From the IMG/VR virus record IMGVR_UViG_2526164599_000011: DNA of 34,178 nucleotides; one strand, written 5' to 3'. How positions within the stretch are numbered: position 1 is the stretch's first letter; each line of letters starts with the position of its first letter. The notes under the pieces were generated by a model. It was not told the DNA's origin. It saw only the letters and a program-made list of their open reading frames with translations, and ran no database searches. The stretch comes from a virus (taxonomy: Duplodnaviria > Heunggongvirae > Uroviricota > Caudoviricetes). This document shows positions 2,712 through 34,178 of the stretch, piece after piece. A program made the position numbers and the translations under genes.

Positions 2712-3013
2712 TGTCCTGTTCTCGTTCGGTTGTATTACTGAATAACGCCTTAAAAATCGCCGTTATGAAAAATGGTGATTTGTCTCTTATTCAACTTGGT
2801 ATTGATAAAGAGAAGCGCGAAATAACTGAATCTGTTATCGCGATTTATCAGAGTGAATTAAACCTCCTGTCTGATGTGGTCAATTTACTTGTTAAACGCG
2901 CTGTATTCCACAAGCAAATTTCCTCAGTGGATGAACTGACAAAATTAACGACAGAACTCGCCAGTTATTGCGCTGATGAATTTAAGAAGCTGAACGACAA
3001 AAGGAGCTGGTAA
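2711..3013 (+). CDS. Hypothetical early protein (P2 orf81-like position)
   Basis: ATG at 2711 translationally coupled to the preceding ORF; 100 aa; ends at 3013 just before the next start. Confidence 0.5.
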   Translation: MSCSRSVVLLNNALKIAVMKNGDLSLIQLGIDKEKREITESVIAIYQSELNLLSDVVNLLVKRAVFHKQISSVDELTKLTTELASYCADEFKKLNDKRSW

Positions 3014-3237
3014 TGCCGGACAACGTGGATTTTATTCAGGAACAACAGGCTGAATTACTGGAGCGCCAGATTAACGCGGCAAGGGTAAAACATTGCGGTG
3101 TTTCTGCGCTGGTTTGCGAAGAGTGTGACGCGCCAATACCTGCTGCCCGTCGTGCGGCTTATCCGTCAGCCACGCGTTGTGTTTCCTGTCAGTCAGTCTT
3201 TGAAGCAAAAAACAAACATTACCGGAGAACGGCATGA
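3013..3237 (+). CDS. TraR/DksA-family C4 zinc-finger protein (P2 orf82-like)
   Basis: 74 aa with CxxC...CxxC arrangement (CEECDAPIPAARRAAYPSATRCVSC), characteristic of TraR/DksA zinc fingers encoded in P2-like early operons. Confidence 0.65.
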   Translation: MPDNVDFIQEQQAELLERQINAARVKHCGVSALVCEECDAPIPAARRAAYPSATRCVSCQSVFEAKNKHYRRTA

Positions 3238-3509
3238 GTATTCGTATTGAAATTGGCGAACGTTATGTCGTTACCAGTGACAGCTTTCAGTTTATTCTCC
3301 ACGAGAAAAAGAGAGCGGAAAGCGGTAAAAACGCCGGTCAGGAATGGCTGGCGGTGGTTGGTTATTACCCGAAATTAGGCCAGCTCGTTTCCGGCCTGAT
3401 GCATCACGATATTCTGACCGGAAGCGCAAAATCTTTTGCTGATTTAAACGCGCAGGTTGAGCAACTCAGCAAGCGTTGTTCAGAGGCTTTTGGCTCATAT
3501 GGCCGTTAA
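3234..3509 (+). CDS. Hypothetical early protein (P2 orf83-like position)
   Basis: 91-aa ORF; its start overlaps the previous stop and its end overlaps the A start. Confidence 0.5.
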   Translation: MSIRIEIGERYVVTSDSFQFILHEKKRAESGKNAGQEWLAVVGYYPKLGQLVSGLMHHDILTGSAKSFADLNAQVEQLSKRCSEAFGSYGR

Positions 3510-5775
3510 AGCCTCCGGGCGTTTTGTCCCTCCGTCAGCATTTACCGCAGGCACCGGTAAGGCGTTTACCGGTGCTTATGCATGGAACGCGCCACGCGAG
3601 GCTGTCGGGCGCGAAAGACCTCTTACACGTGACGAGATGCGTCAGGTGCAAGGTGTTTTATCCACGATTAACCGCCTGCCTTACTTTTTGCGCTCGCTGT
3701 TTACTTCACGCTATGACTACATCCGGCGCAATAAAAGCCCGGTGCACGGGTTTTATTTCCTCACATCCACTTTTCAGCGTCGTTTATGGCCGCGCATTGA
3801 GCGTGTGAATCAGCGCCATGAAATGAACACCGACGCGTCGTTGCTGTTTCTGGCAGAGCGTGACCACTATGCGCGCCTGCCGGGAATGAATGACAAGGAG
3901 CTGAAAAAGTTTGCCGCCCGTATCTCATCGCAGCTTTTCATGATGTATGAGGAACTCTGCGATGCATGGGTTGATGCGCATGGTGAAAAAGAATCGCTGT
4001 TTACGGATGAGGCGCAGGCTCACCTGTATGGTCATGTTGCTGGCGCTGCACGTGCTTTCAATATTTCCCCGCTCTACTGGAAAAAATACCGTAAAGGACA
4101 GATGACCACGAGGCAGGCATATTCTGCCATTGCCCGTCTGTTTAACGATGAGTGGTGGACTCATCAGCTTAAAGGCCAGCGTATGCGCTGGCATGAAGCG
4201 TTACTGATAGCTGTCGGGGAGGTCAATAAAGACCGTTCTCCTTATGCCAGTAAACACGCCATTCGTGATGTGCGTGCGCGCCGCCAGGCAAATCTGGAAT
4301 TTCTTAAATCGTGTGACCTTGAAAACAGGGAAACCGGCGAGCGCATCGACCTTATCAGTAAGGTGATGGGCAGTATTTCTAATCCTGAAATTCGCCGGAT
4401 GGAGCTGATGAACACCATTGCCGGTATTGAGCGTTACGCCGCCGCAGAGGGCGATGTGGGGATGTTTATCACGCTGACCGCACCGTCAAAGTATCACCCG
4501 ACACGTCAGGTCGGAAAAGGCGAAAGTAAAACCGTGCAGCTTAATCACGGCTGGAACGATGAGGCATTTAATCCAAAGGATGCGCAGCGTTATCTCTGCC
4601 GTATCTGGAGCCTGATGCGCACGGCATTCAAGGATAATGATTTACAGGTTTACGGTTTGCGAGTCGTCGAGCCACACCACGACGGAACGCCGCACTGGCA
4701 TATGATGCTTTTTTGTAATCCACGCCAGCGTAACCAGATTATTGAAATCATGCGTCGCTACGCGCTCAAAGAGGATGGCGACGAAAGAGGAGCTGCGCGA
4801 AACCGTTTTCAGGCAAAACACCTTAACCGGGGCGGTGCTGCGGGATATATCGCGAAATACATTTCAAAAAACATCGACGGCTATGCACTGGATGGTCAGC
4901 TCGATAACGATACCGGCAGGCCGCTGAAAGACACTGCCGCGGCTGTTACCGCATGGGCGTCAACGTGGCGCATTCCGCAATTTAAAACGGTTGGCCTGCC
5001 GACAATGGGGGCTTACCGTGAACTACGCAAATTGCCTCGCGGCGTCAGCATTGCTGATGAGTTTGACGAGCGCGTCGAGGCTGCACGCGCCGCCGCAGAC
5101 AGTGGTGATTTTGCGTTGTATATCAGCGCGCAGGGTGGGGCAAATGTCCCGCGCGATTGTCAGACTGTCAGGGTCGCCCGTAGCCCGTCGGATGACGTTA
5201 ACGAGTACGAGGAAGAAGTCGAGAGAGTGGTCGGCATTTACGCGCCGCATCTCGGCGCGCGTCATATTCATATCACCAGAACGACGGACTGGCGCATTGT
5301 GCCGAAAGTTCCGGTCGTTGAGCCTTTGACTTTAAAAAGCGGCATCGCCGCGCCTCGGAGTCCTGTCAATAACTGTGGAAAGCTCACCGGTGGTGATACT
5401 TCGTTACCGGCTCCCACACCTTCTGAGCACGCCGCAGCAGTGCTTAATCTGGTTGATGACGGTGTTATCGAATGGAATGACCCGGAGGTCGTGAGGGCGC
5501 TCAAAAGCGCATTAAAACACGGCCTGAGAAGACCAAACCGTCAGCAAAGAAACGGAAACCCGTTAAAACCACATGAAATTGCACCATCGGCCAGACTGAG
5601 CCGGTCGGAGCGATTGCAAATCACCCGTATCCGCGTTGACCTTGCTCAGAATGGAATCTTGCCCCAGCGATGGGAGCTTGAGGCGCTGGCGCGTGGGGCA
5701 ACCGTAAATTATGACGGGAAAAAATTCACGTATCCGGTTGCTGATGAGTGGTCGGTTTTTTCAATTAAACAATAA
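3499..5775 (+). CDS. A: Replication initiation protein A (rolling-circle HUH-type endonuclease, P2 gpA-like)
   Basis: 758 codons from ATG 3499 (ORF extends upstream to 3457); P2 gpA is about 761 aa. HUH-like motif PHWHMMLF and the tyrosine-bearing segment GYIAKYISKNIDGY are present. Last gene of the early operon. Confidence 0.85.
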   Translation: MAVKASGRFVPPSAFTAGTGKAFTGAYAWNAPREAVGRERPLTRDEMRQVQGVLSTINRLPYFLRSLFTSRYDYIRRNKSPVHGFYFLTSTFQRRLWPRIERVNQRHEMNTDASLLFLAERDHYARLPGMNDKELKKFAARISSQLFMMYEELCDAWVDAHGEKESLFTDEAQAHLYGHVAGAARAFNISPLYWKKYRKGQMTTRQAYSAIARLFNDEWWTHQLKGQRMRWHEALLIAVGEVNKDRSPYASKHAIRDVRARRQANLEFLKSCDLENRETGERIDLISKVMGSISNPEIRRMELMNTIAGIERYAAAEGDVGMFITLTAPSKYHPTRQVGKGESKTVQLNHGWNDEAFNPKDAQRYLCRIWSLMRTAFKDNDLQVYGLRVVEPHHDGTPHWHMMLFCNPRQRNQIIEIMRRYALKEDGDERGAARNRFQAKHLNRGGAAGYIAKYISKNIDGYALDGQLDNDTGRPLKDTAAAVTAWASTWRIPQFKTVGLPTMGAYRELRKLPRGVSIADEFDERVEAARAAADSGDFALYISAQGGANVPRDCQTVRVARSPSDDVNEYEEEVERVVGIYAPHLGARHIHITRTTDWRIVPKVPVVEPLTLKSGIAAPRSPVNNCGKLTGGDTSLPAPTPSEHAAAVLNLVDDGVIEWNDPEVVRALKSALKHGLRRPNRQQRNGNPLKPHEIAPSARLSRSERLQITRIRVDLAQNGILPQRWELEALARGATVNYDGKKFTYPVADEWSVFSIKQ

Positions 5776-5919
5776 TGGCTACTGCCGCAGCGTTGTGGGA
5801 ATGCTATAGTGTTTGTAGAATTATCCCATGAAAAACAACTAATTAATCTGTTTTTCATATTGAACTAATTTTTTATGGCCACAGTTGTTAAAAAGTGAGA
5901 ACATAATCTTGTTCAAAAC

Positions 5920-5960
5920 CTGCTTCTATATACGGAGGCTTTCGCTATAATACGCGGTCG
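5920..5960 (+). promoter_or_regulatory. Putative sigma70-type promoter for the methyltransferase gene
   Basis: TATAAT at 5946-5951 inside an AT-rich tract, about 25 nt upstream of ATG 5977; -35 element is weak (CTTCTA around 5923-5928). Strong SD AGGAGG at 5966-5971. Confidence 0.25.
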
Positions 5961-5976
5961 GTTTTAGGAGGGGATA

Positions 5977-6921
5977 ATGCCAACAGTAGTTTCACTTTTT
6001 TCTGGATGCGGTGGTTCCGATGCGGGGGTTCTGAGAGCTGGCTTTGATGTGCTTATGGCCAACGATATCTTGCCGTATGCGCGCGATGTTTATATTGCCA
6101 ATCATCCAGAAACTGATTACATTTTAGGCAATATTGCTGATGTAACTACTTTTCCTAAATCTGATTTGCTAGTAGGTTGTTATCCATGTCAGGGATTCAG
6201 CCAGGGTGGTGCGCGTAAGGCCGATCGAAAAATTAATACTCTTTATTTAGAGTTTGCTAGAGCTTTAAACAATATAAAGCCTAAAGCTTTTATAGTAGAA
6301 AACGTGTCTGGTATGGTTAGAAAAAACTTCGAGCATTTGTTATCTGACCAGATCAGGGTTTTTACTGAAGCAGGTTATGCTGTTTCAGCAAAAGTTTTGA
6401 ATGCGGCTGAATATGGAGTAGCGCAGGAAAGAAAAAGAATATTTATCGTAGGAATCCGTAATGATTTCAAAGTTAAGTACGAGTTCCCTCAGCCAACTCA
6501 TGGGCCGGCGACTGGCGTCAACTATGTTACTATTAAAGATGCTATAGGGCATTTACCTGAATGGCCAGAAGGTGAATTTTATGATATGGGGTTCCATTGG
6601 TATTATATGTCTCGCAATCGTCGCCAAGATTGGGATCAAATTTCAAAGACAATAGTTGCTAATGCAAGGCATATGCCGTTGCATCCTATCAGTCCTTCGA
6701 TGGAGAAAGTAAGAACTGATGAATGGAGGTTTGTTGAGGATCGGAGAGCTCGCAGATTCAGTTTTCGAGAGGCAGCACTATTACAAGGGTTTGAGGATCT
6801 AGTGTTTCCCGAAACAAATGCTGCAAGTCTTGGCATGAAATACACGGTGGTTGGTAATGCAGTGCCTCCGCCGCTTTTTGAAGCTGTAACGAAGGCATTG
6901 CCAATAGAATTATGGGATTGA
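5977..6921 (+). CDS. DNA (cytosine-5)-methyltransferase
   Basis: 314 aa with canonical C5-MTase motifs: FSGCGG (motif I, AdoMet binding), GCYPCQGFSQGG (motif IV, catalytic PCQ), ENV (motif VI), QERKR (motif VIII), GNAVPPPL near the C-terminus (motif X). Strong SD; gene is visibly more AT-rich than the phage backbone. Confidence 0.9.
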   Translation: MPTVVSLFSGCGGSDAGVLRAGFDVLMANDILPYARDVYIANHPETDYILGNIADVTTFPKSDLLVGCYPCQGFSQGGARKADRKINTLYLEFARALNNIKPKAFIVENVSGMVRKNFEHLLSDQIRVFTEAGYAVSAKVLNAAEYGVAQERKRIFIVGIRNDFKVKYEFPQPTHGPATGVNYVTIKDAIGHLPEWPEGEFYDMGFHWYYMSRNRRQDWDQISKTIVANARHMPLHPISPSMEKVRTDEWRFVEDRRARRFSFREAALLQGFEDLVFPETNAASLGMKYTVVGNAVPPPLFEAVTKALPIELWD

Positions 6922-6928
6922 TAAGCTA

Positions 6929-7921
6929 TTAAGGCTCTGGATTTAATGTATAAAGTTCTTCTTCAAATTCGCGAAACCAATCAGAGGTAGTTATCGCTTC
7001 CCATTGGTTTGCCTTATCAAGTAGATATATGATCCTCAACCTATCTAATAATAATACACCAGCGGTTGCATGTGTGCTTACCCATTCGCCATTTGCTTCC
7101 CGATAGAAAACAGGCGTGAACATTGTTGATGGATGCTGGAAAGCAATTTGGAAATAGGTGGTCAGTTTTAACACGTTAGCCTCTAATGTTTTGCTTGGCC
7201 ACCCTGTTTCTTGTGCACCACATTGACCAAGAATTCCATAGTTGCTAGTTTGACCATCAGGAAATTCCACTGTAGCAATTAGGTCAAACCCAGCATCACC
7301 AGATGTGGGAGCTTTATTTATTTCCCTTGTGTTTAAACTACAAACTCCAAGATCTTTTCCTAAAATTTGTAGAGCATTCCGAAGATTCGTTCCATAATAT
7401 TTTTGCCTATCATCGGAGTTAGCATCAAAAATTCTTACGGTGCCATGTGCAGGTAAGAGAGAAATCATTGCAACTTTACATACTCTGGCAAAGCTCTTTG
7501 CCCAACGTTGTGCTGCTCCTCTAATCGACTTAAAGGATCTAAGTCTAGAGCAACAAAGGAGAAAAACATATATTCTTTGTTGTTGGTTTAGATTTTCTTT
7601 AATAATTATCTCATCACCTGAAATTATAAATGGATATATCTTTCCAAGAGCGCTTTCTCTATATTCGAGTTGTGTCCAAACATCTTCTAGTTGCTCTTCA
7701 AAACGATCATTTCTCTCTGCGTCTCCATCAATTTCTTCTTCAAAATTACATTCTTCATCAATTTCTTCAACACTTGTCATGCCGAATTTTCTTACTGAAT
7801 CTAAATCATTTTTATGCAGAGAGTTACGTCCGATATAATTAATCACCGTGAGTAACTCGGCTAAATCTGCAAACAAATGGGGAGAGTTGGGATGCATAAC
7901 TCCTACTTCAAAAGTCATCAT
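6929..7921 (-). CDS. Hypothetical protein, family not recognised; convergent with the MTase, downstream partner of the ParB-like gene
   Basis: About 330 aa; GTG at 7924 then ATGs at 7921 and 7918; start overlaps the stop of the upstream ParB-like gene (TGA 7908-7910). Acidic N-terminal region (EEIDEECNFEEEIDGDAERNDRFEEQLED). Stop TAA at 6929-6931 is 7 nt from the MTase stop. AT-rich. Confidence 0.7.
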   Translation of the reverse strand: MMTFEVGVMHPNSPHLFADLAELLTVINYIGRNSLHKNDLDSVRKFGMTSVEEIDEECNFEEEIDGDAERNDRFEEQLEDVWTQLEYRESALGKIYPFIISGDEIIIKENLNQQQRIYVFLLCCSRLRSFKSIRGAAQRWAKSFARVCKVAMISLLPAHGTVRIFDANSDDRQKYYGTNLRNALQILGKDLGVCSLNTREINKAPTSGDAGFDLIATVEFPDGQTSNYGILGQCGAQETGWPSKTLEANVLKLTTYFQIAFQHPSTMFTPVFYREANGEWVSTHATAGVLLLDRLRIIYLLDKANQWEAITTSDWFREFEEELYTLNPEP

Positions 7922-9029
7922 CACCTCTGCTATTTTTCTCTGCTATTTCAGAACCTATAAGCTTAATATGTTTATTGATTCTTCGTGCTACTTCATGAGC
8001 CTGTCTATCATACTCTACTGTGGCAACCATGCCTGCTGCATCTATCAAAGCCGCTTCAACTTGATAAAGTAACTGGAGAAAGTCCTTAGTAATATCAGAT
8101 GTCAATTGGTAGGCCACTGCGAGTGGAGCCCCCATTCGGAATTGCTCCAATGCCTTAGGGCTACTAACAACAGCAGCTAATTCTCTTAAATTACGTGACT
8201 CTCCAACACGAGTTTTTTTATCCTCACCTTTTTTATATAACCACTCAGTTAGCTCTTTTATTTCTTTGTTCTTTAAGCTATTAGAGTTGATAATAGGATG
8301 ACTTGGTATTGTGTCTCCATCGTCTTCGATTGAAACTCCGACAAATTGGCCTAACCGCTCATCAGCAAGTGCTGTTGATAATACTGAAAATTTAATCGTT
8401 TCTTCATCTAGTTTTTCAATACCATAAAAATCATTTTCTTTAATGATTTCATACACCGCTAAAGCGTCTAGGTTACGCTTGATATGATCCCTACGACTGC
8501 CAATAGCTCTGGCAACCTCATAGTAGCGTAGCATCGGATCCTGATTTGCATTGGTATAATCAAAAAGCTGTTTAATATATCGAGCTTTTGATAAGGGCTC
8601 CCATTGTTTGACACCAGTAATATGTCTGAAACCAAGATACGGAAGAATCTCTTCTCTTGTTTGGCGCTCAATGACAGGAACACGATCGACTGTATGTTTT
8701 GCATTTGATGCAATTTCTCGTAGTCGAGCACTTGGATTTTCACATAGTGTCGGATCGCGTAATAATTTAACTGCGGATAGGCGACGGTTTCCTTCAACTA
8801 CAATGTACTTCCCCGGCGCGACACTGTCAGGAATGACAATCAATGGTTCTCCAGGGAAAAAACCATTTTCCGCAATAGCACTCATTAGATCTTCGATAGA
8901 TGTTGAGGTTGCTATGTAGTTAATCATTCCCAATTGGTCACGAGACACGCCTTCAGGAAGTCTTGGGTTTTCTGTGTCAAGTTCCAAATCATCTAGCGGA
9001 ACATAAAGTATTTCTGAATCAGCAATCAT
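7908..9029 (-). CDS. ParB/Srx-like N-terminal domain protein (ParB-type nuclease/NTPase fold), function unknown
   Basis: 373 aa; N-terminal ILYVPLDDLELDTENPR...GEPLIVIP...YIVVEGNRRLSAV matches the ParB box I / GxxRxxA box II pattern. SD GGAG 7-10 nt upstream of ATG at 9029. AT-rich; first gene of a two-gene leftward operon. Confidence 0.75.
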   Translation of the reverse strand: MIADSEILYVPLDDLELDTENPRLPEGVSRDQLGMINYIATSTSIEDLMSAIAENGFFPGEPLIVIPDSVAPGKYIVVEGNRRLSAVKLLRDPTLCENPSARLREIASNAKHTVDRVPVIERQTREEILPYLGFRHITGVKQWEPLSKARYIKQLFDYTNANQDPMLRYYEVARAIGSRRDHIKRNLDALAVYEIIKENDFYGIEKLDEETIKFSVLSTALADERLGQFVGVSIEDDGDTIPSHPIINSNSLKNKEIKELTEWLYKKGEDKKTRVGESRNLRELAAVVSSPKALEQFRMGAPLAVAYQLTSDITKDFLQLLYQVEAALIDAAGMVATVEYDRQAHEVARRINKHIKLIGSEIAEKNSRGDDDF

Positions 9030-9255
9030 CTGGATCTCCGTTGAACATGTCTACGAGAAGGAGCACAAAGTTATTTCATAACATGCAATATACTCATTCT
9101 GTAGCCATAAATGAATTATTCATGATGTAAGATTCGCGTTGATGTGCGTGAATTCGCAAGTAATTTTATAGCAAGGTTTGATTGGGTATCGTTAGCACTG
9201 GCGCGGTTTCAACGTATTCATGCACCTGCATTAAAACCGACCCATGAAGCGGGCG

Positions 9256-9274
9256 GGCGAGGCGGGGAAAGCAC
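9256..9274. other. Probable cos site (19-nt cohesive end of P2-type phages)
   Basis: GGCGAGGCGGGGAAAGCAC at 9256-9274 matches the P2 cohesive-end sequence as I recall it, and lies about 170 bp from the end of portal gene Q where P2 cos sits. Sequence identity is from memory and not verified. Confidence 0.6.
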
Positions 9275-9443: not shown

Positions 9444-10478
9444 TCAGCCGTTGTCAGTGTCCAGTGAGTAGTTTTTAAAGCGGATGACCTCCTGACCGAG
9501 CCAGCCGTTTATCTCGCGGATCCTGTCCTGTAACGGGATAAGTTCATTGCGGACAAAGACCTTTGCCACTTTCTCAATATCACCCAGCGACCCGACGTTC
9601 TCCGGCTTGCCACCCATCAACTGAAAGGGGATGCGGTGCGCGTCCAGCAGGTCAGCGGCGCTGGCTTTTTTGATATTAAAAAAATCGTCCTTCGTCGCCA
9701 CTTCACTGAGGGGGATAATTTTAATGCCGTCGGCTTTCCCCTGTGGGGCATAGAGAAACAGGTTTTTAAAGTTGTTGCGGCCTTTCGACTTGACCATGTT
9801 TTCGCGAAGCATTTCGATATCGTTGCGGTCCTGCACGGCATCGGTGACGTACATGATGTATCCGGCATGTGCGCCGTTTTCGTAATACTTGCGGCGGAAC
9901 AGCGTGGCCGACTCATTCAGCCAGGCAGAGTTAAGGGCGCTGAGATATTCCGGCAGACCGTACAGCTCCTGATTAATATCCGGCTCCAGCAGGTGAAACA
10001 CGGAGCCGGGCGCGAAAGGTGTCGGCTCGTTGAAAGACGGCACCCACCAGTAAACATCCTCCTCCACGCCACGACGGGTATATTTGGCCGGTGAGGTTTC
10101 CAGTCTGATGACCTTACCGGTGGTGCTGTAACGCTTTTCCAGAAACGCATTACCGAACACCAGAAAATCCAGCACAAAACGGCTGAAATCCTGCTGGGAA
10201 AGCCACGGGTGCGGGATAAACGTTGAAGCCAGAATATTACGTTTGACGTAAATCGGTGAGCTGTGATGCACGGCAGCACGCAGACTTTTTGCCAGGCCGG
10301 TAAAGCTGACCGGTGGCTCATACCATCTGCCGTTACTGATGCACTCGACGTAATCCAGAATGTCACGCCGGTCGAGTACCGGTACCGGCTCACCAAAGGT
10401 GAATGCCTCCATTTTCGGGGCGCTGGCGGTCATTGTTTTTGCCGCAGGTTGCGGTGTTTTCCCTTTTTTCTTGCTCAT
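9444..10478 (-). CDS. Q: Portal protein (P2 gpQ-like)
   Basis: 344 aa, identical in length to P2 gpQ; leftward, adjacent to cos, followed by the terminase large subunit with start/stop overlap at 10478-10480. Confidence 0.9.
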   Translation of the reverse strand: MSKKKGKTPQPAAKTMTASAPKMEAFTFGEPVPVLDRRDILDYVECISNGRWYEPPVSFTGLAKSLRAAVHHSSPIYVKRNILASTFIPHPWLSQQDFSRFVLDFLVFGNAFLEKRYSTTGKVIRLETSPAKYTRRGVEEDVYWWVPSFNEPTPFAPGSVFHLLEPDINQELYGLPEYLSALNSAWLNESATLFRRKYYENGAHAGYIMYVTDAVQDRNDIEMLRENMVKSKGRNNFKNLFLYAPQGKADGIKIIPLSEVATKDDFFNIKKASAADLLDAHRIPFQLMGGKPENVGSLGDIEKVAKVFVRNELIPLQDRIREINGWLGQEVIRFKNYSLDTDNG

Positions 10479-12250
10479 CAGTAAAACTCCAGAATGGTGG
10501 ATGTCAGCGGAGTGCTGATACCGGCGGTGAGTGGCTCATTTAACAGGGCGTGCATGGTCGCCCAGGCGAGGTCGGCGTGGCTGGCTTCCTCGCTGCGGCT
10601 GGCCTCATAGGTGGCACTGCGTCCGCTGCTGGTCATGGTCTTGCGGATAGCCATAAACGAGCTGGTGATGTCGGTGGCGCTGACGTCATATTCCAGACAG
10701 CCACGGCGGATAACGTCTTTTGCCTTGAGCACCATTGCGGTTTTCATTTCCGGCGTGTAGCGGATATCGCGCGCGGCGGGATAGAACGAGCGCACGAGCT
10801 GGAACACGCCGACACCGAGGCCGGTGGCATCAATTCCGATGTATTCGACGTTGTATTTCTCGGTGAGTTTGCGGATGGATTCAGCCTGAGTGGCAAAGTC
10901 CATGCCTTTCCACTGGTGACGCTCAAGGATCCTGAATTTGCCACCGGCCACCACCGGCGGTGCCAGTACCACGCATCCGGCGCTGTCGCCACGGTGTGAC
11001 GGGTCGTAACCAATCCATACCGGGCGGGAGCCGAACGGATTCGCGGCAAACGGCGCATAGTCTTCCCATTCTTCCAGCGTGTCGACCATGCAGCGTTGCA
11101 GCTCCTCGAACGGGAACACCGATGCCTTGTCGTCAACAAATTCACACATGAACAGGTTTTTAAAATCGTCGGCGCTGTTTTCACGTTTGAGCTGCTCAAT
11201 GTCGAACAGCGTGCAGCCGCCTTTCAGGGCATCCTCAATGGTGACAATCTGCCGCCACTGGCCGTCCGCACAGAGAAGACCTCCGGCAAGGGCGTTATGA
11301 CTGACGTCGATTTCCACGCGTTCGGCGGCGCTGGCGCGTCCCCGGTTGAACAGTTCACCCGACCAGAACGGGTAGGCGTCGTGCGCCAGCGTGGACGGGG
11401 TGGAGAAATAGGTCGAGCGCAGGTGACTCTGTGAGGCCATACCTGATGCCACCTTACGCAGTACCTGAAAATTCGGGATCCAGAAAATCTCGTCGACGTA
11501 CAGGTCGCCGTTATGGCTCTGTGCGGTGTTGGAGTTGGTGCCGAGAAAAATCAGTTTTGCGCCGTTATTGCCCAGGACAATCGGGTCACCGGTCAGGTCA
11601 ACGTCAACCAGTCGGGCAAAGGCGATGATGTATTCGCGGAACACATACGCCTGCGTTTTACTGGCCGACAGAAAAATCTGGTTATGACCGGTTTTCAGGG
11701 CGCGCAGCAGCGCCTCGCGGGAAAAATAAAACGTCGCGCCAATCTGGCGGGATTTCAGGATATCGCGGATGCGGTGCTCAAGCCCGGCGCGATACCAGTG
11801 CAACTGATATTCGAAAGACTGCTCAAAGAAAATCTGCTCCAGCTTTTCGATAGCCTCGTCGCTGAAAAAATTCTTTTTCGGTTTGCGCCGCCCGCCTTTG
11901 TTGCGGTTAGCGATGTTCGGATTAAGGTCTGCCTCGTTGCCGGTCTGGTTGTAGCGGTTTACCCGTGCCAGTCGTTCAATCTGGCGTCCGAGCAGGTCAA
12001 TTTCCTTGAAGTCACCGCCGGTTTTCTGCGGTTTTATGATGAGCTGGGTCAGCCGCGCTTCCAGACTCATTTCGACACGGCTGATGGGGGCAACGCTGTC
12101 CCAGCCGTCGCGCTGTTTCCAGCTCTGCACCGTCGGGCGTTTCATCTGCAACATGGCGGCAATCTGCGGCACGGAAAACCCCTGCCAGTACAGCAGCGCC
12201 GCCTGACGACGCGGGTCGTGTAAAAGAGTGGTGTCTGTGGTGATGGTCAT
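10478..12250 (-). CDS. P: Terminase large (ATPase) subunit (P2 gpP-like)
   Basis: ORF runs to 12280 (TTG); first ATG at 12250 gives 590 aa, the length of P2 gpP. Divergent from capsid scaffold gene O. Confidence 0.85.
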   Translation of the reverse strand: MTITTDTTLLHDPRRQAALLYWQGFSVPQIAAMLQMKRPTVQSWKQRDGWDSVAPISRVEMSLEARLTQLIIKPQKTGGDFKEIDLLGRQIERLARVNRYNQTGNEADLNPNIANRNKGGRRKPKKNFFSDEAIEKLEQIFFEQSFEYQLHWYRAGLEHRIRDILKSRQIGATFYFSREALLRALKTGHNQIFLSASKTQAYVFREYIIAFARLVDVDLTGDPIVLGNNGAKLIFLGTNSNTAQSHNGDLYVDEIFWIPNFQVLRKVASGMASQSHLRSTYFSTPSTLAHDAYPFWSGELFNRGRASAAERVEIDVSHNALAGGLLCADGQWRQIVTIEDALKGGCTLFDIEQLKRENSADDFKNLFMCEFVDDKASVFPFEELQRCMVDTLEEWEDYAPFAANPFGSRPVWIGYDPSHRGDSAGCVVLAPPVVAGGKFRILERHQWKGMDFATQAESIRKLTEKYNVEYIGIDATGLGVGVFQLVRSFYPAARDIRYTPEMKTAMVLKAKDVIRRGCLEYDVSATDITSSFMAIRKTMTSSGRSATYEASRSEEASHADLAWATMHALLNEPLTAGISTPLTSTILEFY

Positions 12251-12423
12251 GAATACCTCGCCGTGATGAATACACGGCAAGGCTACTGAGTCGTGCCCTG
12301 CGATTCGCTAAGGTGCTGTTGTGTCAGTGATAAGCCATCCGGGACTGATGGCGGAGGATGCGCATCGTCGGGAAACTGATGCCGACATGTGACTCCTCTA
12401 ATCACTATTCAGGACTCCTGACA
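12251..12423. promoter_or_regulatory. Divergent late promoter region (expected Ogr-dependent P-leftward and O-rightward promoters)
   Basis: Position only: intergenic region between divergent P and O, as in P2. I could not find an unambiguous TGT-N12-ACA activator site by eye. Confidence 0.35.
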
Positions 12424-24475: not shown

Positions 24476-25003
24476 ATGATGCACTTAAAGAACATAAAAG
24501 CGGGTAACGCTAAAACACTGGAACAGTATGAGTTAACAAAGAAACACGGAGTTATCTGGCTTTACTCTGAGGACGGAAAAAACTGGTATGAGGAAGTGAA
24601 GAACTTTCAGCCAGACACAATAAAGATTGTTTACGATGAAAATAATATTATTGTCGCTATCACCAGAGATGCTTCAACGCTTAATCCTGAAGGTTTTAGC
24701 GTTGTTGAGGTTCCTGATATTACCTCCAACCGACGTGCTGACGACTCAGGTAAATGGATGTTTAAGGATGGTGCTGTGGTTAAACGGATTTATACGGCAG
24801 ATGAACAGCAACAACAGGCAGAATCACAAAAGGCAGCGTTACTTTCCGAAGCGGAAAGCGTTATTCAGCCACTGGAACGCGCTGTCAGGCTGAATATGGC
24901 GACGGATGAGGAACGTGCACGACTGGAGTCATGGGAACGCTACAGCGTTCTGGTCAGCCGTGTGGATCCTGCAAATCCTGAATGGCCGGAAATGCCGCAA
25001 TAA
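24476..25003 (+). CDS. G: Tail fibre assembly chaperone (P2 gpG-like)
   Basis: 175 aa (P2 gpG 175 aa); immediately downstream of H. Confidence 0.85.
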
Positions 25004-25218: not shown

Positions 25219-26118
25219 ATGAGTGGTATTCGTATAACTCAGGCTATTGATAACAATCAGATTTTAGTCAATGTAAATACTTTTAATTATAGTGTTAATC
25301 CCTATCCACTCAAATGTCCTGACCCAAATTGCTCTGCTCATTTGGTGTATGTCAAAAGCCATATTCGTCGGAGTTTTAATAAAACCTTGCATATCCCCGC
25401 CTTCTTTAGACTGGAAAAAAATTTCACGCATGACAAATTATGTCAGTATGGAACTTCAGGATTGAATACAATTTATGCAAGTGATTCCAGTCATGATATC
25501 AGCCGTGCGCTTGCCACAGGTAATAATATATTCCGTATACATATACTCGATGAAGATGATATCTCTAAATTAAGCAGAAAAGCTGCAGCTATGCAGGCAA
25601 ATCCACCTTCTGATACTACAGACCGCGTTTATGTCAAGAGAGGTCGGAAAGCCCCCTATGTGAAGAACATGGATAGCTTACGGGAGATCTATGAATATGG
25701 AAAAGCTCACCCCAACAAGAGAAACAGCATAAAAATTGTTACTGGAACAAGTACTGTAACGTGGTCTGATTTTTTCTATGAAACAACGCAGTTAGAACGA
25801 TTGTCAACTTACCTCCAGAAAGTAAAAATAGCTCAGGTTGCTGTAATTATGAAAGTGCATGTGGCGAGAATCCCTATGGCGAAATTTAATTATCGACACT
25901 TCATTGAAGGTTCGCCAATGAGGATAAAAGGGGGCTTTAATATATATCCTACGATTCAATTAGGAAATGTTACTCCAAAATTATTTCCGTTGAGTAGCAT
26001 TGTCATGGTACTCGGTAAATTTACTATTCCAACAAATAGAAAAATGATAATGGATCCAACATTTGAGCGTGAAGTCAGAACCATAGTTTCTAGTGAAGAG
26101 CAAGTGCTAATTCTTTGA
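25219..26118 (+). CDS. Hypothetical 299-aa protein, family not recognised; AT-rich cargo gene at the P2 Z/fun position
   Basis: ATG at 25219 with strong SD GGAGG; 299 aa; much more AT-rich than the flanking tail genes, with AT-rich non-coding DNA on both sides (25004-25218 and 26119-26437). Contains CPDPNCSAH near the N-terminus; no family assigned by eye. Confidence 0.7.
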   Translation: MSGIRITQAIDNNQILVNVNTFNYSVNPYPLKCPDPNCSAHLVYVKSHIRRSFNKTLHIPAFFRLEKNFTHDKLCQYGTSGLNTIYASDSSHDISRALATGNNIFRIHILDEDDISKLSRKAAAMQANPPSDTTDRVYVKRGRKAPYVKNMDSLREIYEYGKAHPNKRNSIKIVTGTSTVTWSDFFYETTQLERLSTYLQKVKIAQVAVIMKVHVARIPMAKFNYRHFIEGSPMRIKGGFNIYPTIQLGNVTPKLFPLSSIVMVLGKFTIPTNRKMIMDPTFEREVRTIVSSEEQVLIL

Positions 26119-26437: not shown

Positions 26438-27628
26438 ATGAGCGACTATCATCATGGCGTGCAGGTGCTGGAGATTAACGACGGCACCCGCGTCATTTCC
26501 ACTGTATCCACCGCCATTGTCGGCATGGTCTGCACGGCCAGCGATGCGGATGCGGAAACCTTCCCCCTCAATAAACCGGTGCTGATTACCAATGTGCAGA
26601 GCGCAATTGCAAAGGCTGGTAAAAAAGGCACGCTGGCGGCATCGTTGCAGGCCATCGCTGACCAGTCAAAACCGGTCACCGTTGTTGTGCGTGTGGAAGA
26701 CGGCACCGGCGACGACGAGGAAACGAAACTCGCGCAGACCGTATCCAATATCATCGGCACCACCGACGAAAACGGTCAGTACACCGGACTGAAAGCCCTG
26801 CTGGCGGCGGAGTCGGTAACCGGTGTTAAACCGCGTATTCTCGGCGTGCCGGGGCTGGATACCAAAGAGGTGGCTGTTGCACTGGCATCAGTCTGTCAGA
26901 AGCTGCGCGCTTTCGGGTATATCAGCGCATGGGGCTGTAAAACCATTTCCGAGGTGAAAGCCTACCGCCAGAATTTCAGCCAGCGTGAGCTGATGGTCAT
27001 CTGGCCAGATTTCCTCGCATGGGATACGGTCACCAGTACCACCGCCACCGCGTATGCCACCGCCCGTGCGCTGGGTCTGCGCGCTAAAATCGACCAGGAG
27101 CAGGGCTGGCATAAAACGCTGTCCAATGTCGGGGTAAACGGTGTTACCGGCATCAGTGCCTCTGTATTCTGGGATTTGCAGGAGTCCGGCACCGATGCTG
27201 ACCTGTTGAACGAGTCAGGTGTCACAACGCTGATTCGCCGTGACGGTTTCCGCTTCTGGGGTAACCGTACCTGCTCTGATGACCCGCTGTTCCTCTTTGA
27301 AAACTACACCCGCACCGCGCAGGTGCTGGCCGACACGATGGCTGAGGCGCACATGTGGGCGGTGGACAAGCCCATCACCGCAACGCTGATTCGCGACATC
27401 GTTGACGGCATCAATGCCAAATTCCGTGAGCTGAAAACAAACGGCTATATCGTGGATGCGACCTGCTGGTTCAGCGAAGAATCCAACGATGCGGAAACCC
27501 TCAAGGCCGGAAAACTGTATATCGACTACGACTATACACCGGTGCCTCCTCTTGAAAACCTGACCCTGCGCCAGCGTATTACCGATAAATACCTGGCAAA
27601 TCTGGTCACCTCGGTTAACAGCAATTAA
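26438..27628 (+). CDS. FI: Contractile tail sheath protein (P2 gpFI-like)
   Basis: 396 aa (P2 gpFI 396 aa); SD GGAG upstream; first gene of the FI-FII-E-T-U-D operon. Confidence 0.9.
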   Translation: MSDYHHGVQVLEINDGTRVISTVSTAIVGMVCTASDADAETFPLNKPVLITNVQSAIAKAGKKGTLAASLQAIADQSKPVTVVVRVEDGTGDDEETKLAQTVSNIIGTTDENGQYTGLKALLAAESVTGVKPRILGVPGLDTKEVAVALASVCQKLRAFGYISAWGCKTISEVKAYRQNFSQRELMVIWPDFLAWDTVTSTTATAYATARALGLRAKIDQEQGWHKTLSNVGVNGVTGISASVFWDLQESGTDADLLNESGVTTLIRRDGFRFWGNRTCSDDPLFLFENYTRTAQVLADTMAEAHMWAVDKPITATLIRDIVDGINAKFRELKTNGYIVDATCWFSEESNDAETLKAGKLYIDYDYTPVPPLENLTLRQRITDKYLANLVTSVNSN

Positions 27629-33194: not shown

Positions 33195-33275
33195 ATCCTC
33201 AATTTGCCTGCTGCTTAATGCATTGCAGATGATTTGCTTCCGTTATACTAGCGTCAGTTGATAGCGGGAGTATTT

Positions 33276-34178
33276 ATGAATCAATCTTATGGACGGCTGG
33301 TCAGTCGGGCGGCGATTGCTGCGACGGCGATGGCTTCGTTGCTATTGCTGATTAAAATTTTTGCATGGTGGTATACCGGGTCGGTGAGTATTCTCGCCGC
33401 GCTGGTGGATTCGCTGGTGGATATCGGCGCGTCGTTGACGAATTTATTGGTGGTGCGATATTCCCTGCAACCTGCCGACGATAATCACTCGTTTGGTCAC
33501 GGTAAAGCTGAGTCCCTCGCGGCGCTGGCGCAAAGTATGTTTATCTCCGGTTCGGCACTATTCCTGTTTTTGACGGGTATTCAACATCTGATATCTCCAA
33601 CACCGATGACAGATCCAGGCGTCGGGGTTATCGTGACAATTGTGGCGCTAATTTGTACGATTATCCTTGTCTCGTTTCAGCGTTGGGTGGTGCGGCGGAC
33701 GCAAAGCCAGGCGGTGCGGGCTGATATGCTACATTACCAGTCTGATGTTATGATGAACGGCGCAATTCTGCTGGCGCTGGGGTTGTCCTGGTACGGCTGG
33801 CATCGCGCCGATGCTCTGTTTGCATTGGGAATCGGCATCTATATTTTATATAGCGCGTTACGCATGGGATATGAGGCGGTACAGTCATTACTGGATCGCG
33901 CATTGCCTGATGAGGAACGGCAAGAAATTATTGATATCGTGACTTCCTGGCCGGGTGTTAGCGGCGCTCACGATCTTCGCACGCGGCAGTCAGGGCCGAC
34001 CCGCTTTATTCAGATTCATTTGGAAATGGAAGACTCTCTGCCTTTGGTTCAGGCACATATGGTGGCGGATCAGGTAGAGCAGGCTATTTTACGGCGTTTT
34101 CCGGGATCGGATGTAATTATCCATCAGGACCCCTGTTCCGTCGTACCCAGGGAGGGTAAACGGTCTATGCTTTCATAA
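33276..34178 (+). CDS. fieF: Cation-efflux pump FieF (YiiP), cation diffusion facilitator family; host gene
   Basis: 300 aa from ATG 33276 with SD GGGAG; sequence [54 protein letters not shown]... is recognisable as enterobacterial FieF; GC and codon usage differ from the adjacent cargo regions. Confidence 0.9.

Follow-up and report, generated by a model that had tools for sequence, protein, structure and literature searches.

A three-gene cassette encoding a C5-cytosine methyltransferase, a ParB-like protein and a nuclease-fold protein at the gpA-cos locus of a P2-like prophage: a candidate restriction-modification-like system

The IMG/VR record IMGVR_UViG_2526164599_000011, a stretch of 34,178 nucleotides (nt) that is referred to below as the window, represents a whole P2-like prophage, and a cassette of three genes is located between its gpA gene and cos. 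One of the genes encodes a C5-cytosine DNA methyltransferase (MTase). The other two form a convergent operon of overlapping genes, which encode a ParB-like protein of 373 amino acids (aa) and a 331-aa protein with a predicted restriction-enzyme fold. The three genes always occur together, and the ParB-like and 331-aa proteins diverge in parallel. These results suggest that the cassette is a prophage-borne exclusion cassette similar to a restriction-modification (R-M) system, in which methylation would mark self DNA, and the ParB-like protein, as a DNA-binding subunit with a nucleoside triphosphate switch, would restrict unmarked DNA together with the nuclease. We estimate the probability of this reading to be about 0.5.

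The cassette has been catalogued since 2022, but its function is unproven, and it is not covered by any named or validated system. New in this work are the assignment of a nuclease fold with candidate residues, the complete linkage and co-divergence of the genes, the separation of the cassette from PD-lambda-5, and a reason why the activity of a homologue may have been missed. With the fold assignment and the co-divergence, what had been a catalogue entry becomes a model that can be tested at defined residues.

Results

Gene arrangement of the cassette

The cassette consists of the following features.

5977..6921, plus strand: C5-cytosine DNA methyltransferase, 314 aa, similar to M.HaeIII over its full length (Pfam, TIGR00675, PADLOC and motifs)
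6922..6928, no strand: 7-nt spacer separating the convergent stop codons of the MTase gene and the 331-aa gene (coordinates of the open reading frames, ORFs)
6929..7924, minus strand: 331-aa protein with a predicted winged helix and PD-(D/E)xK nuclease fold of the MspJI/Mrr type, candidate restriction or effector subunit
7908..9029, minus strand: 373-aa ParB/Srx-fold protein (ParB-N, a region similar to a helix-turn-helix, and a helical C-terminal half), encoded by the first gene of the operon

According to the ORF listing, the cargo of 3.5 kb holds only these three genes. Its G+C content is 0.398, as compared with 0.49 and 0.54 for the remaining window; the value is 0.35-0.43 over positions ~5600-9200 and 0.52-0.59 on both sides. 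An earlier reading of the window, made from the sequence only, had described an AT-rich three-gene cassette between A and cos at the old/tin hotspot of P2, with the stop codons of the MTase and 331-aa genes 7 nt apart in a tail-to-tail arrangement. The ORF coordinates, base composition and flanks agree with this description. The coordinates that it gave are also correct; it placed the start of the 331-aa gene at 7921. This start is located at 7924 when the gene starts with GTG (6929-7924), and at 7918 when the ATG codon selected by RefSeq/PGAP is used, which yields a protein of 329 aa. In the window, the ParB-like gene shares 11-17 nt with the 331-aa gene, and loci of Burkholderia and Methylophilaceae show a similar overlap of 11-14 nt.

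The cassette is 100% identical to that of E. coli TW10590, 99.9% identical to that of E. coli ATCC 8739 and 97% identical to that of Yersinia phage HQ103, and a full-length copy is present in 48 of 5,426 complete E. coli genomes. It is not a chance feature, because near-identical copies are found in these other genomes.

Linkage, co-divergence and decay of the three genes

Loci were drawn from genome contigs, phage records, two E. coli chromosomes and 53 IMG/VR contigs on which a relative of the 331-aa protein is encoded. No gene of the trio is missing from any locus with an intact region (58/58), and the order of the ParB-like gene, the middle gene (the counterpart of the 331-aa gene) and the convergent MTase gene is retained in all but one of them (57/58). 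The tail-to-tail 7-nt junction is likewise conserved. The loci span P2-like phages of several genera, with gpA identities of 31-98%, and include some in which this identity is just 31-37%. The trio is also found in non-P2 prophages of Burkholderia and Methylophilaceae, and that of Burkholderia vietnamiensis adjoins an integrase gene. The sequence-only reading took the three genes for a candidate defence or R-M-like system at a variable hotspot. This part of it is supported: the cassette is foreign cargo at the variable old/tin hotspot of P2, its genes form one unit, and an R-M-like or defence function is the best explanation. The genes co-occur throughout the loci, and do not form an ordinary annotated Type II R-M system.

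The identities of the ParB-like and middle proteins to those of the window change in parallel (Pearson 0.99, Spearman 0.90), although the loci are phylogenetically non-independent and these coefficients are descriptive only. The MTase is 65-99% identical to that of the window in all 58 loci, and its identity reaches a plateau at 72-78% while the other two proteins diverge. The identities are given below for four groups, which are defined by the percentage identity between the middle protein and its counterpart in the window.

Closest group (middle protein at least 85%): ParB-like 96%, middle 93%, MTase 94%
54-85% group: ParB-like 63%, middle 58%, MTase 78%
40-54% group: ParB-like 55%, middle 48%, MTase 72%
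Wphi type (middle protein less than 40%): ParB-like 35%, middle 26%, MTase 74%

This pattern is compatible with a co-adapting protein pair beside a methylase that would have a constant specificity.

Several loci carry additional or decayed genes. Two Methylophilaceae loci (L003 at 7165-7929 and L004 at 3165-4097) contain an extra HNH_2 gene (PF13391, 5.5e-11) between the nuclease-like gene and the MTase gene. In IMG/VR contig 2945748529_000005 (L057 at 5962-8103), an element of the IS3 family with transposase ORFs of 102 aa and 281 aa splits a nuclease-like gene of the Wphi type, and the MTase gene is intact. Loss of the nuclease gene beside an intact MTase gene is typical of the decay of R-M systems, and would be expected if carrying the nuclease half of the cassette imposes a cost. 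The hotspot of Yersinia phage L-413C (L007 at 207-1199) retains just a truncated ParB-like ORF, which is 62% identical over residues 9-303 and is abutted by orf91; the middle and MTase genes are gone.

Predicted fold and conserved residues of the 331-aa protein

The 331-aa protein has no family match in Pfam, NCBIfam or PADLOC, and is contained in PHROG 3984, which is annotated as 'unknown function'. It has 273 close relatives of ~330 aa across Gamma- and Betaproteobacteria, and an exhaustive profile search for the family yields 1,219 cluster representatives at 50% identity. When its structural model is compared with known structures by Foldseek, MspJI is the top match (probability 0.97), followed by BsaWI, Cdn1, CinB and Mus81. 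A profile built from close homologues gives no matches in the PDB, but a broad profile of 90 diverse family members reaches MspJI as the top match by sequence alone, with an E-value of 0.011. In the profile alignment, the stretch SGDgGlD...fgQCac of the family is located opposite SGDGGVD...LGQAKC of MspJI. The catalytic motif of MspJI, which we take to be D334...Q355-x-K357, matches this stretch. This alignment suggests that D214 and Q234 of the 331-aa protein occupy the catalytic positions of MspJI.

Among the 1,219 cluster representatives, D214, Q234, W242, R295 and R297 are invariant, and Glu146, GDxG, K245 and D294 are nearly so. Similarity to E. coli Mrr, which likewise consists of a winged helix and a catalytic domain, is weaker. 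The hhalign probability is 10-13%, and Pfam Mrr_cat is reached by just one of the 90 relatives, at 0.005. In a greedy alignment, the protein and E. coli Mrr are co-linear along almost their entire length, and GDGGxD, Q and the terminal LxDxxR fall in register; this alignment is supportive only. These results suggest that the 331-aa protein consists of a winged helix and a PD-(D/E)xK fold of the MspJI/Mrr type; it resembles this fold class, without being assignable to the Mrr_cat or MspJI family. Its fold matches include neither an SRA-like or other known modified-base reader domain nor a dioxygenase or transferase fold.

ParB-like protein

KorB, PadC and Spo0J are among the matches of the 373-aa protein. 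Its invariant EGNRR sequence (GNRR box) is aligned with the GERR box of ParB, so that both the ParB-N fold and the arginine-rich GxRR box that define the ParB/Srx superfamily are present. Further invariant blocks are NPR (21-23), GFRHITGVKxW (133-143) and GESR (276-279). The invariant R135-H136 would lie roughly at the third conserved box of canonical ParB, as judged from the alignment. The C-terminal half is helical, and a HEPN-like sequence, RRINKH, was considered in the protein and rejected, as it is not conserved.

In PADLOC, residues 9-192 of the protein match positions 7-196 of the 440-position PD-Lambda-5_A profile (1.6e-28). The sequence-only reading had recognized no named system in the cassette; in agreement with this, PADLOC yields just this partial PD-Lambda-5_A match, and none for the 331-aa protein.

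C5 methyltransferase

The MTase matches the Pfam family DNA_methylase (PF00145) over its full length at 5e-65, and also matches TIGR00675. Its motifs are readable as FSGCGG (FxGxG), PCQ, ENV, QERKR (QxRxR) and GNAVPP (GNxVP). The protein is a clear C5-cytosine methyltransferase, in which the catalytic motifs are intact as read from the sequence. The nearest solved structure is that of M.HaeIII, which recognizes GGCC; residues 4-308 are aligned with residues 3-320 of this enzyme (E 2.8e-48), and the alignment spans the target-recognition region. The recognition site is probably GGCC-like, because the MTase resembles M.HaeIII through this region. The ratio of observed to expected GGCC sites in the window is 0.66, the second lowest among the 4-mer palindromes after GATC, but this value is not decisive without a host baseline. 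GATC is strongly depleted across the whole window (38 observed against 137 expected, ratio 0.28) and is by far the lowest 4-bp palindrome.

The PADLOC profiles matched by the MTase are DruM2, which is the best, and MTase_II. Membership in Druantia type II, raised by the DruM2 match, was rejected: the cargo contains none of the partner genes for DruE, DruF and DruG, and the other two proteins match no Druantia model in PADLOC.

Comparison with known systems

The validated system nearest to the cassette, although a different one, is PD-lambda-5. It is described as a compacted RM+Abi (restriction-modification and abortive infection) system that is validated and gives broad protection, strongest against T-even phages (Vassallo et al. 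2022). Like the cassette, it is prophage-borne, and its protein A, which opens with a homologous ParB-N module, is paired with a DNA MTase. However, protein A consists of ~500 aa and combines ParBc with a weakly matching DUF4145/HEPN C-terminal half, for which the cassette has no counterpart. Protein B is a D12-class N6-adenine MTase (PF02086, MethyltransfD12; Vassallo et al. 2022, Table S3), whereas the MTase of the window is a C5 enzyme. In addition, PD-lambda-5 consists of two genes, whereas the cassette consists of three invariably linked genes, of which the 331-aa gene has no counterpart in PD-lambda-5.

Vibrio phage ValB1MD-2 carries a clear PD-lambda-5 system, in which the A profile is covered at positions 4-238 and 250-502 of 503 and the B profile is matched at 2e-118. 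In contrast, the ParB-like protein of the window and gp98 of phage Wphi match only the first ~160-200 positions of PD-lambda-5 A, the middle proteins match nothing, and no PD-Lambda-5_B model is found among the best 25 of 63 PADLOC matches. Assignment of the cassette to PD-lambda-5 was rejected on three defining features, namely full-length A, D12-class B and the two-gene layout. In ValB1MD-2 (L063 at 2947-5386), PD-lambda-5 A is annotated as two ORFs of 252 aa and 265 aa, which correspond to the N- and C-terminal halves of the profile and are followed by a Dam-like MTase gene. The two ORFs reflect a natural split of the gene or a frameshift.

Mrr and MspJI, which are modification-dependent Type IV enzymes, share with the 331-aa protein an N-terminal winged helix, a C-terminal catalytic domain, and GDGGxD and Q in register. 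The 331-aa protein differs from them in that it has no motif lysine and is encoded together with an MTase and a ParB-like partner.

In the GmrSD/BrxU/SspE design, a ParB-fold DUF262 NTPase, or nucleotide-binding DNA sensor, is coupled to a nuclease effector. PD-T4-2 similarly consists of DUF262 and HEPN (Vassallo et al. 2022, Table S3). The cassette shares with these systems the design principle of a ParB/Srx-fold sensor and a nuclease effector, a likeness that rests on established knowledge. However, these systems contain DUF262 with a DGQQR sequence and a His-Me or HEPN effector, whereas the cassette contains a ParB_N/KorB-like protein with GNRR, a PD-(D/E)xK-type protein and an obligatory MTase.

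Classical Type II R-M modules of P2-like phages, such as that of Burkholderia phage KL3 (EcoRII-C, Vsr and EcoRII MTase), are portal-proximal cargo in which a C5-MTase gene is likewise combined with a nuclease gene. The cassette differs from them in that it has no recognizable restriction endonuclease family or Vsr, and contains an extra ParB-like subunit that co-evolves with the nuclease-like protein. With regard to the adjacent endonuclease that a Type II R-M system has, the fold of a restriction enzyme is predicted for the 331-aa protein, the canonical motif lysine is absent, and the fold scores are modest.

Earlier catalogue entry and the homologue of phage Wphi

The sequence-only reading had called the cassette undescribed, which is not the case. 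The record of phage Wphi has held a homologous trio, gp98/gp96/Mth, at the same locus for years. Its proteins are 76% (MTase), 34% (ParB-like) and 26% (middle, E 1e-25) identical to those of the window. Furthermore, Rousset et al. (2022) surveyed the gpA-gpQ hotspot of P2 in all E. coli genomes and listed the arrangement 'DNA_methylase + hypothetical + ParBc' (Table S5A) as WP_001143636, WP_000142509 and WP_000559725. The 97% allele encodes exactly these proteins, and the window holds their siblings WP_001143635, WP_000142507 and WP_000559726. This group is system #2, 'RM-like system', with 1,136 occurrences among 18,150 loci, and its protein list includes a homologue of the 331-aa protein (Rousset et al. 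2022, Table S5B). By this count, RM-like cassettes rank second in frequency among the cargo of the P2 hotspot in E. coli, yet they have no demonstrated function, name or mechanism.

The gpA-gpQ location and the arrangement of DNA_methylase, hypothetical protein and ParBc that characterize the RM-like entry are both found in the window, which has the locus and the three-gene architecture in common with it. The entry differs in that it is a catalogue label with Pfam tags and no reported activity. The hotspot houses old/tin and many validated systems, and its cargo is mostly anti-phage. In other E. coli genomes it contains a sister arrangement, 'DUF262 + DNA_methylase + HEPN' (Rousset et al. 2022, Table S5A), which suggests a modular class that combines an MTase with a sensor of the ParB fold and with an effector of the nuclease or HEPN type. 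A literature search found no paper on the mechanism of the trio, nor on PDC-M38.

The Wphi version was cloned as pFR107 from E. coli ATCC 9637 and labelled 'RM-like' (Rousset et al. 2022). Wphi represents another subfamily; its gp96 keeps Glu146 and does not contain FDANSDDR, which the window subfamily carries as an invariant sequence of its own (166-173) together with Ala146.

Discussion

Proposed mechanism

In the preferred reading, the C5-MTase would methylate a short site in the DNA of both host and prophage, and thereby provide the self mark. The ParB-like and 331-aa proteins, encoded by one overlapping operon, would most likely work together in a complex. In it, the ParB-like subunit would be the DNA-binding part that serves as a nucleotide-gated switch or clamp, as in other proteins of the ParB/Srx fold, and the 331-aa subunit would provide a winged-helix DNA-binding domain and a nuclease domain of the Mrr/MspJI type. 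Incoming phage or mobile DNA without the methyl mark would be cut, and methylated resident DNA would be spared. The linkage of the three genes, the co-divergence, the overlap in the operon, the ParB fold, the homology to the ParB-N module of PD-lambda-5, the hotspot location, the 'RM-like' label of Rousset et al. and the decay of the nuclease-like gene in L057 all argue for this reading.

Several points weigh against it. Throughout the middle-protein family, G, A or C stands in place of the lysine in the D...(Q/E)xK motif, and the window subfamily has Ala146 at the position at which 90% of the superfamily has Glu146. The 331-aa protein could be catalytically dead, because the motif lysine and Glu146 are both absent. 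However, migration of an acidic active-site residue occurs in the PD-(D/E)xK fold class, and the exchange of Glu146 for Ala146 together with the gain of FDANSDDR may represent such a migration. The scores of the fold matches are also modest. The nearest nuclease relatives, MspJI, AspBHI and Mrr, cut modified DNA, not unmodified DNA.

Finally, pFR107 was tested against eight phages in E. coli MG1655, and is listed among the 'additional tested systems' (Rousset et al. 2022, Table S2B), not among the validated ones. Three other P2 systems are named as active in the main text of that work, and no defence is reported for pFR107. MG1655 carries mcrBC and mrr, and a host in which the mrr region is deleted was needed for the work on PD-lambda-5 (Vassallo et al. 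2022). The test of pFR107 may have missed activity, since the host was McrBC+/Mrr+ and the allele is distant from that of the window in two of the three proteins.

An extension of this reading is that a CTP (cytidine triphosphate)-type clamp similar to ParB/KorB loads on or scans DNA, and licenses the Mrr-like nuclease only on DNA that lacks the cognate 5-methylcytosine (5mC). We regard this extension as a tentative possibility. If it is true, the cassette would represent a mechanistically new class of R-M system, in which a switch of the ParB type takes the place of the ATP motors or simple dimers of known R-M types, and PD-lambda-5 and the DUF262/HEPN/MTase cassettes would be sister designs. 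If the ParB-like protein gates restriction by a nucleotide switch, the clamp mechanism of ParB/KorB would be linked to immunity, and this would also help to account for the action of the validated PD-lambda-5.

Alternative explanations

It is possible, but unlikely, that two functions travel together, in which an orphan-like MTase shields phage and host DNA from other restriction systems, and the ParB-like sensor and the Mrr-like nuclease form a Type IV-like pair directed against modified phages. The modification dependence of the closest nuclease relatives (MspJI and AspBHI, and Mrr with its co-linear motifs) is what such a pair would have. Coupling of a ParB/DUF262 fold to a nuclease is the established design of GmrSD and SspE and is seen as DUF262 and HEPN in PD-T4-2, and the T-even phages, against which PD-lambda-5 is most effective, have heavily modified DNA. 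The MTase also evolves at a rate unlike that of the ParB-like and middle genes. However, the MTase is never found apart from the pair in the 58 loci, non-P2 contexts included, and the 7-nt tail-to-tail junction is conserved. A 5mC-dependent nuclease beside a 5mC MTase would be self-toxic unless the specificities are disjoint, and the fold matches of the 331-aa protein include no SRA-like or known modified-base reader.

Quite unlikely is the explanation that the cassette is mainly a selfish addiction or stabilization module, which keeps the prophage in its lineage by post-segregational killing, as many Type II R-M systems do, and contributes little or nothing to defence against phages. The R-M-like layout, the wide spread on integrative elements beside integrases, and the decayed copies (the insertion in L057 and the remnant in L-413C) are compatible with this explanation, and so is the lack of reported defence for the Wphi homologue. 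This negative test, however, was made in a McrBC+/Mrr+ host with one diverged allele, of which two of the three proteins are 34% and 26% identical to those of the window. The cargo of the hotspot is mostly anti-phage and the related PD-lambda-5 is protective; moreover, addiction and defence are not mutually exclusive. Even if addiction is its sole function, the cassette would remain a common source of 5mC in E. coli, Yersinia phage HQ103 and other hosts.

That neither the ParB-like protein nor the 331-aa protein is a nuclease is improbable. They would then serve the phage in a process that involves methylated DNA (for example regulation, DNA hypermodification, partition or plasmid-like maintenance, or packaging near cos), and the nuclease-like domain would be inactive, as may be expected from the missing canonical lysine and, in the window subfamily, the missing Glu146. 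KorB and ParB do not act as nucleases but as clamps on DNA or as regulators, a putative partition system is present at this locus in about a quarter of P2-like phages, and ParB-like partners of DNA-modifying enzymes are described for phages (PMC13229309). This explanation is nevertheless at odds with the lack of a ParA/StbA partner and of a dioxygenase or transferase fold in the 331-aa protein, with the invariant polar residues at catalytic positions among the 1,219 representatives (D214, Q234, K245, R295 and R297), with the invariant acidic FDANSDDR sequence, which suggests migration rather than loss of a residue, and with the HNH_2 nuclease genes that join the module in some loci.

Flanking features and a second cargo gene

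The window contains an integrase gene (1-1011) at one end and a host cation-efflux gene (33258-34178) at the other. The regions flanking the cassette are as follows.

3457..5775, plus strand: P2 gpA replication endonuclease, left border of the hotspot (772-aa ORF; RefSeq 'replication endonuclease' in the identical TW10590 locus)
5776..5976, plus strand: AT-rich intergenic region 5' of the MTase gene, with TATAAT at ~5946-5951 and an AGGAGG ribosome-binding site ahead of the ATG (read from the sequence)
9030..9255, minus strand: AT-rich region 5' of the ParB-like/nuclease operon, reaching cos, with one weak match to a promoter at 9053-9025 of the minus strand (sequence)
9256..9274, plus strand: P2-type cos, 19-nt cohesive-end sequence GGCGAGGCGGGGAAAGCAC, right border of the cargo (read from the sequence)
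9444..10478, minus strand: portal protein gpQ, conserved right flank of the hotspot (ORF; RefSeq 'phage portal protein')
9444-12280: portal Q and terminase P, right flank

Scans for consensus promoters and terminators give counts no better than those of shuffled sequences, so that any promoter here is tentative. The 19-mer GGCGAGGCGGGGAAAGCAC at 9256-9274 is presumably the P2 cos sequence, and the linear record of Yersinia phage HQ103 terminates where position 9255 of the window is aligned.

A second AT-rich cargo gene is present at 25219-26118 on the plus strand. It encodes a protein of 299 aa without a Pfam or PADLOC match, and its G+C content is 0.35-0.41. It is flanked by the tail-fibre assembly gene (24476-25003) on one side and by FI (26438-27628) on the other, a position that corresponds to the second hotspot of P2 (Z/fun position), and could be another uncharacterized defence candidate.

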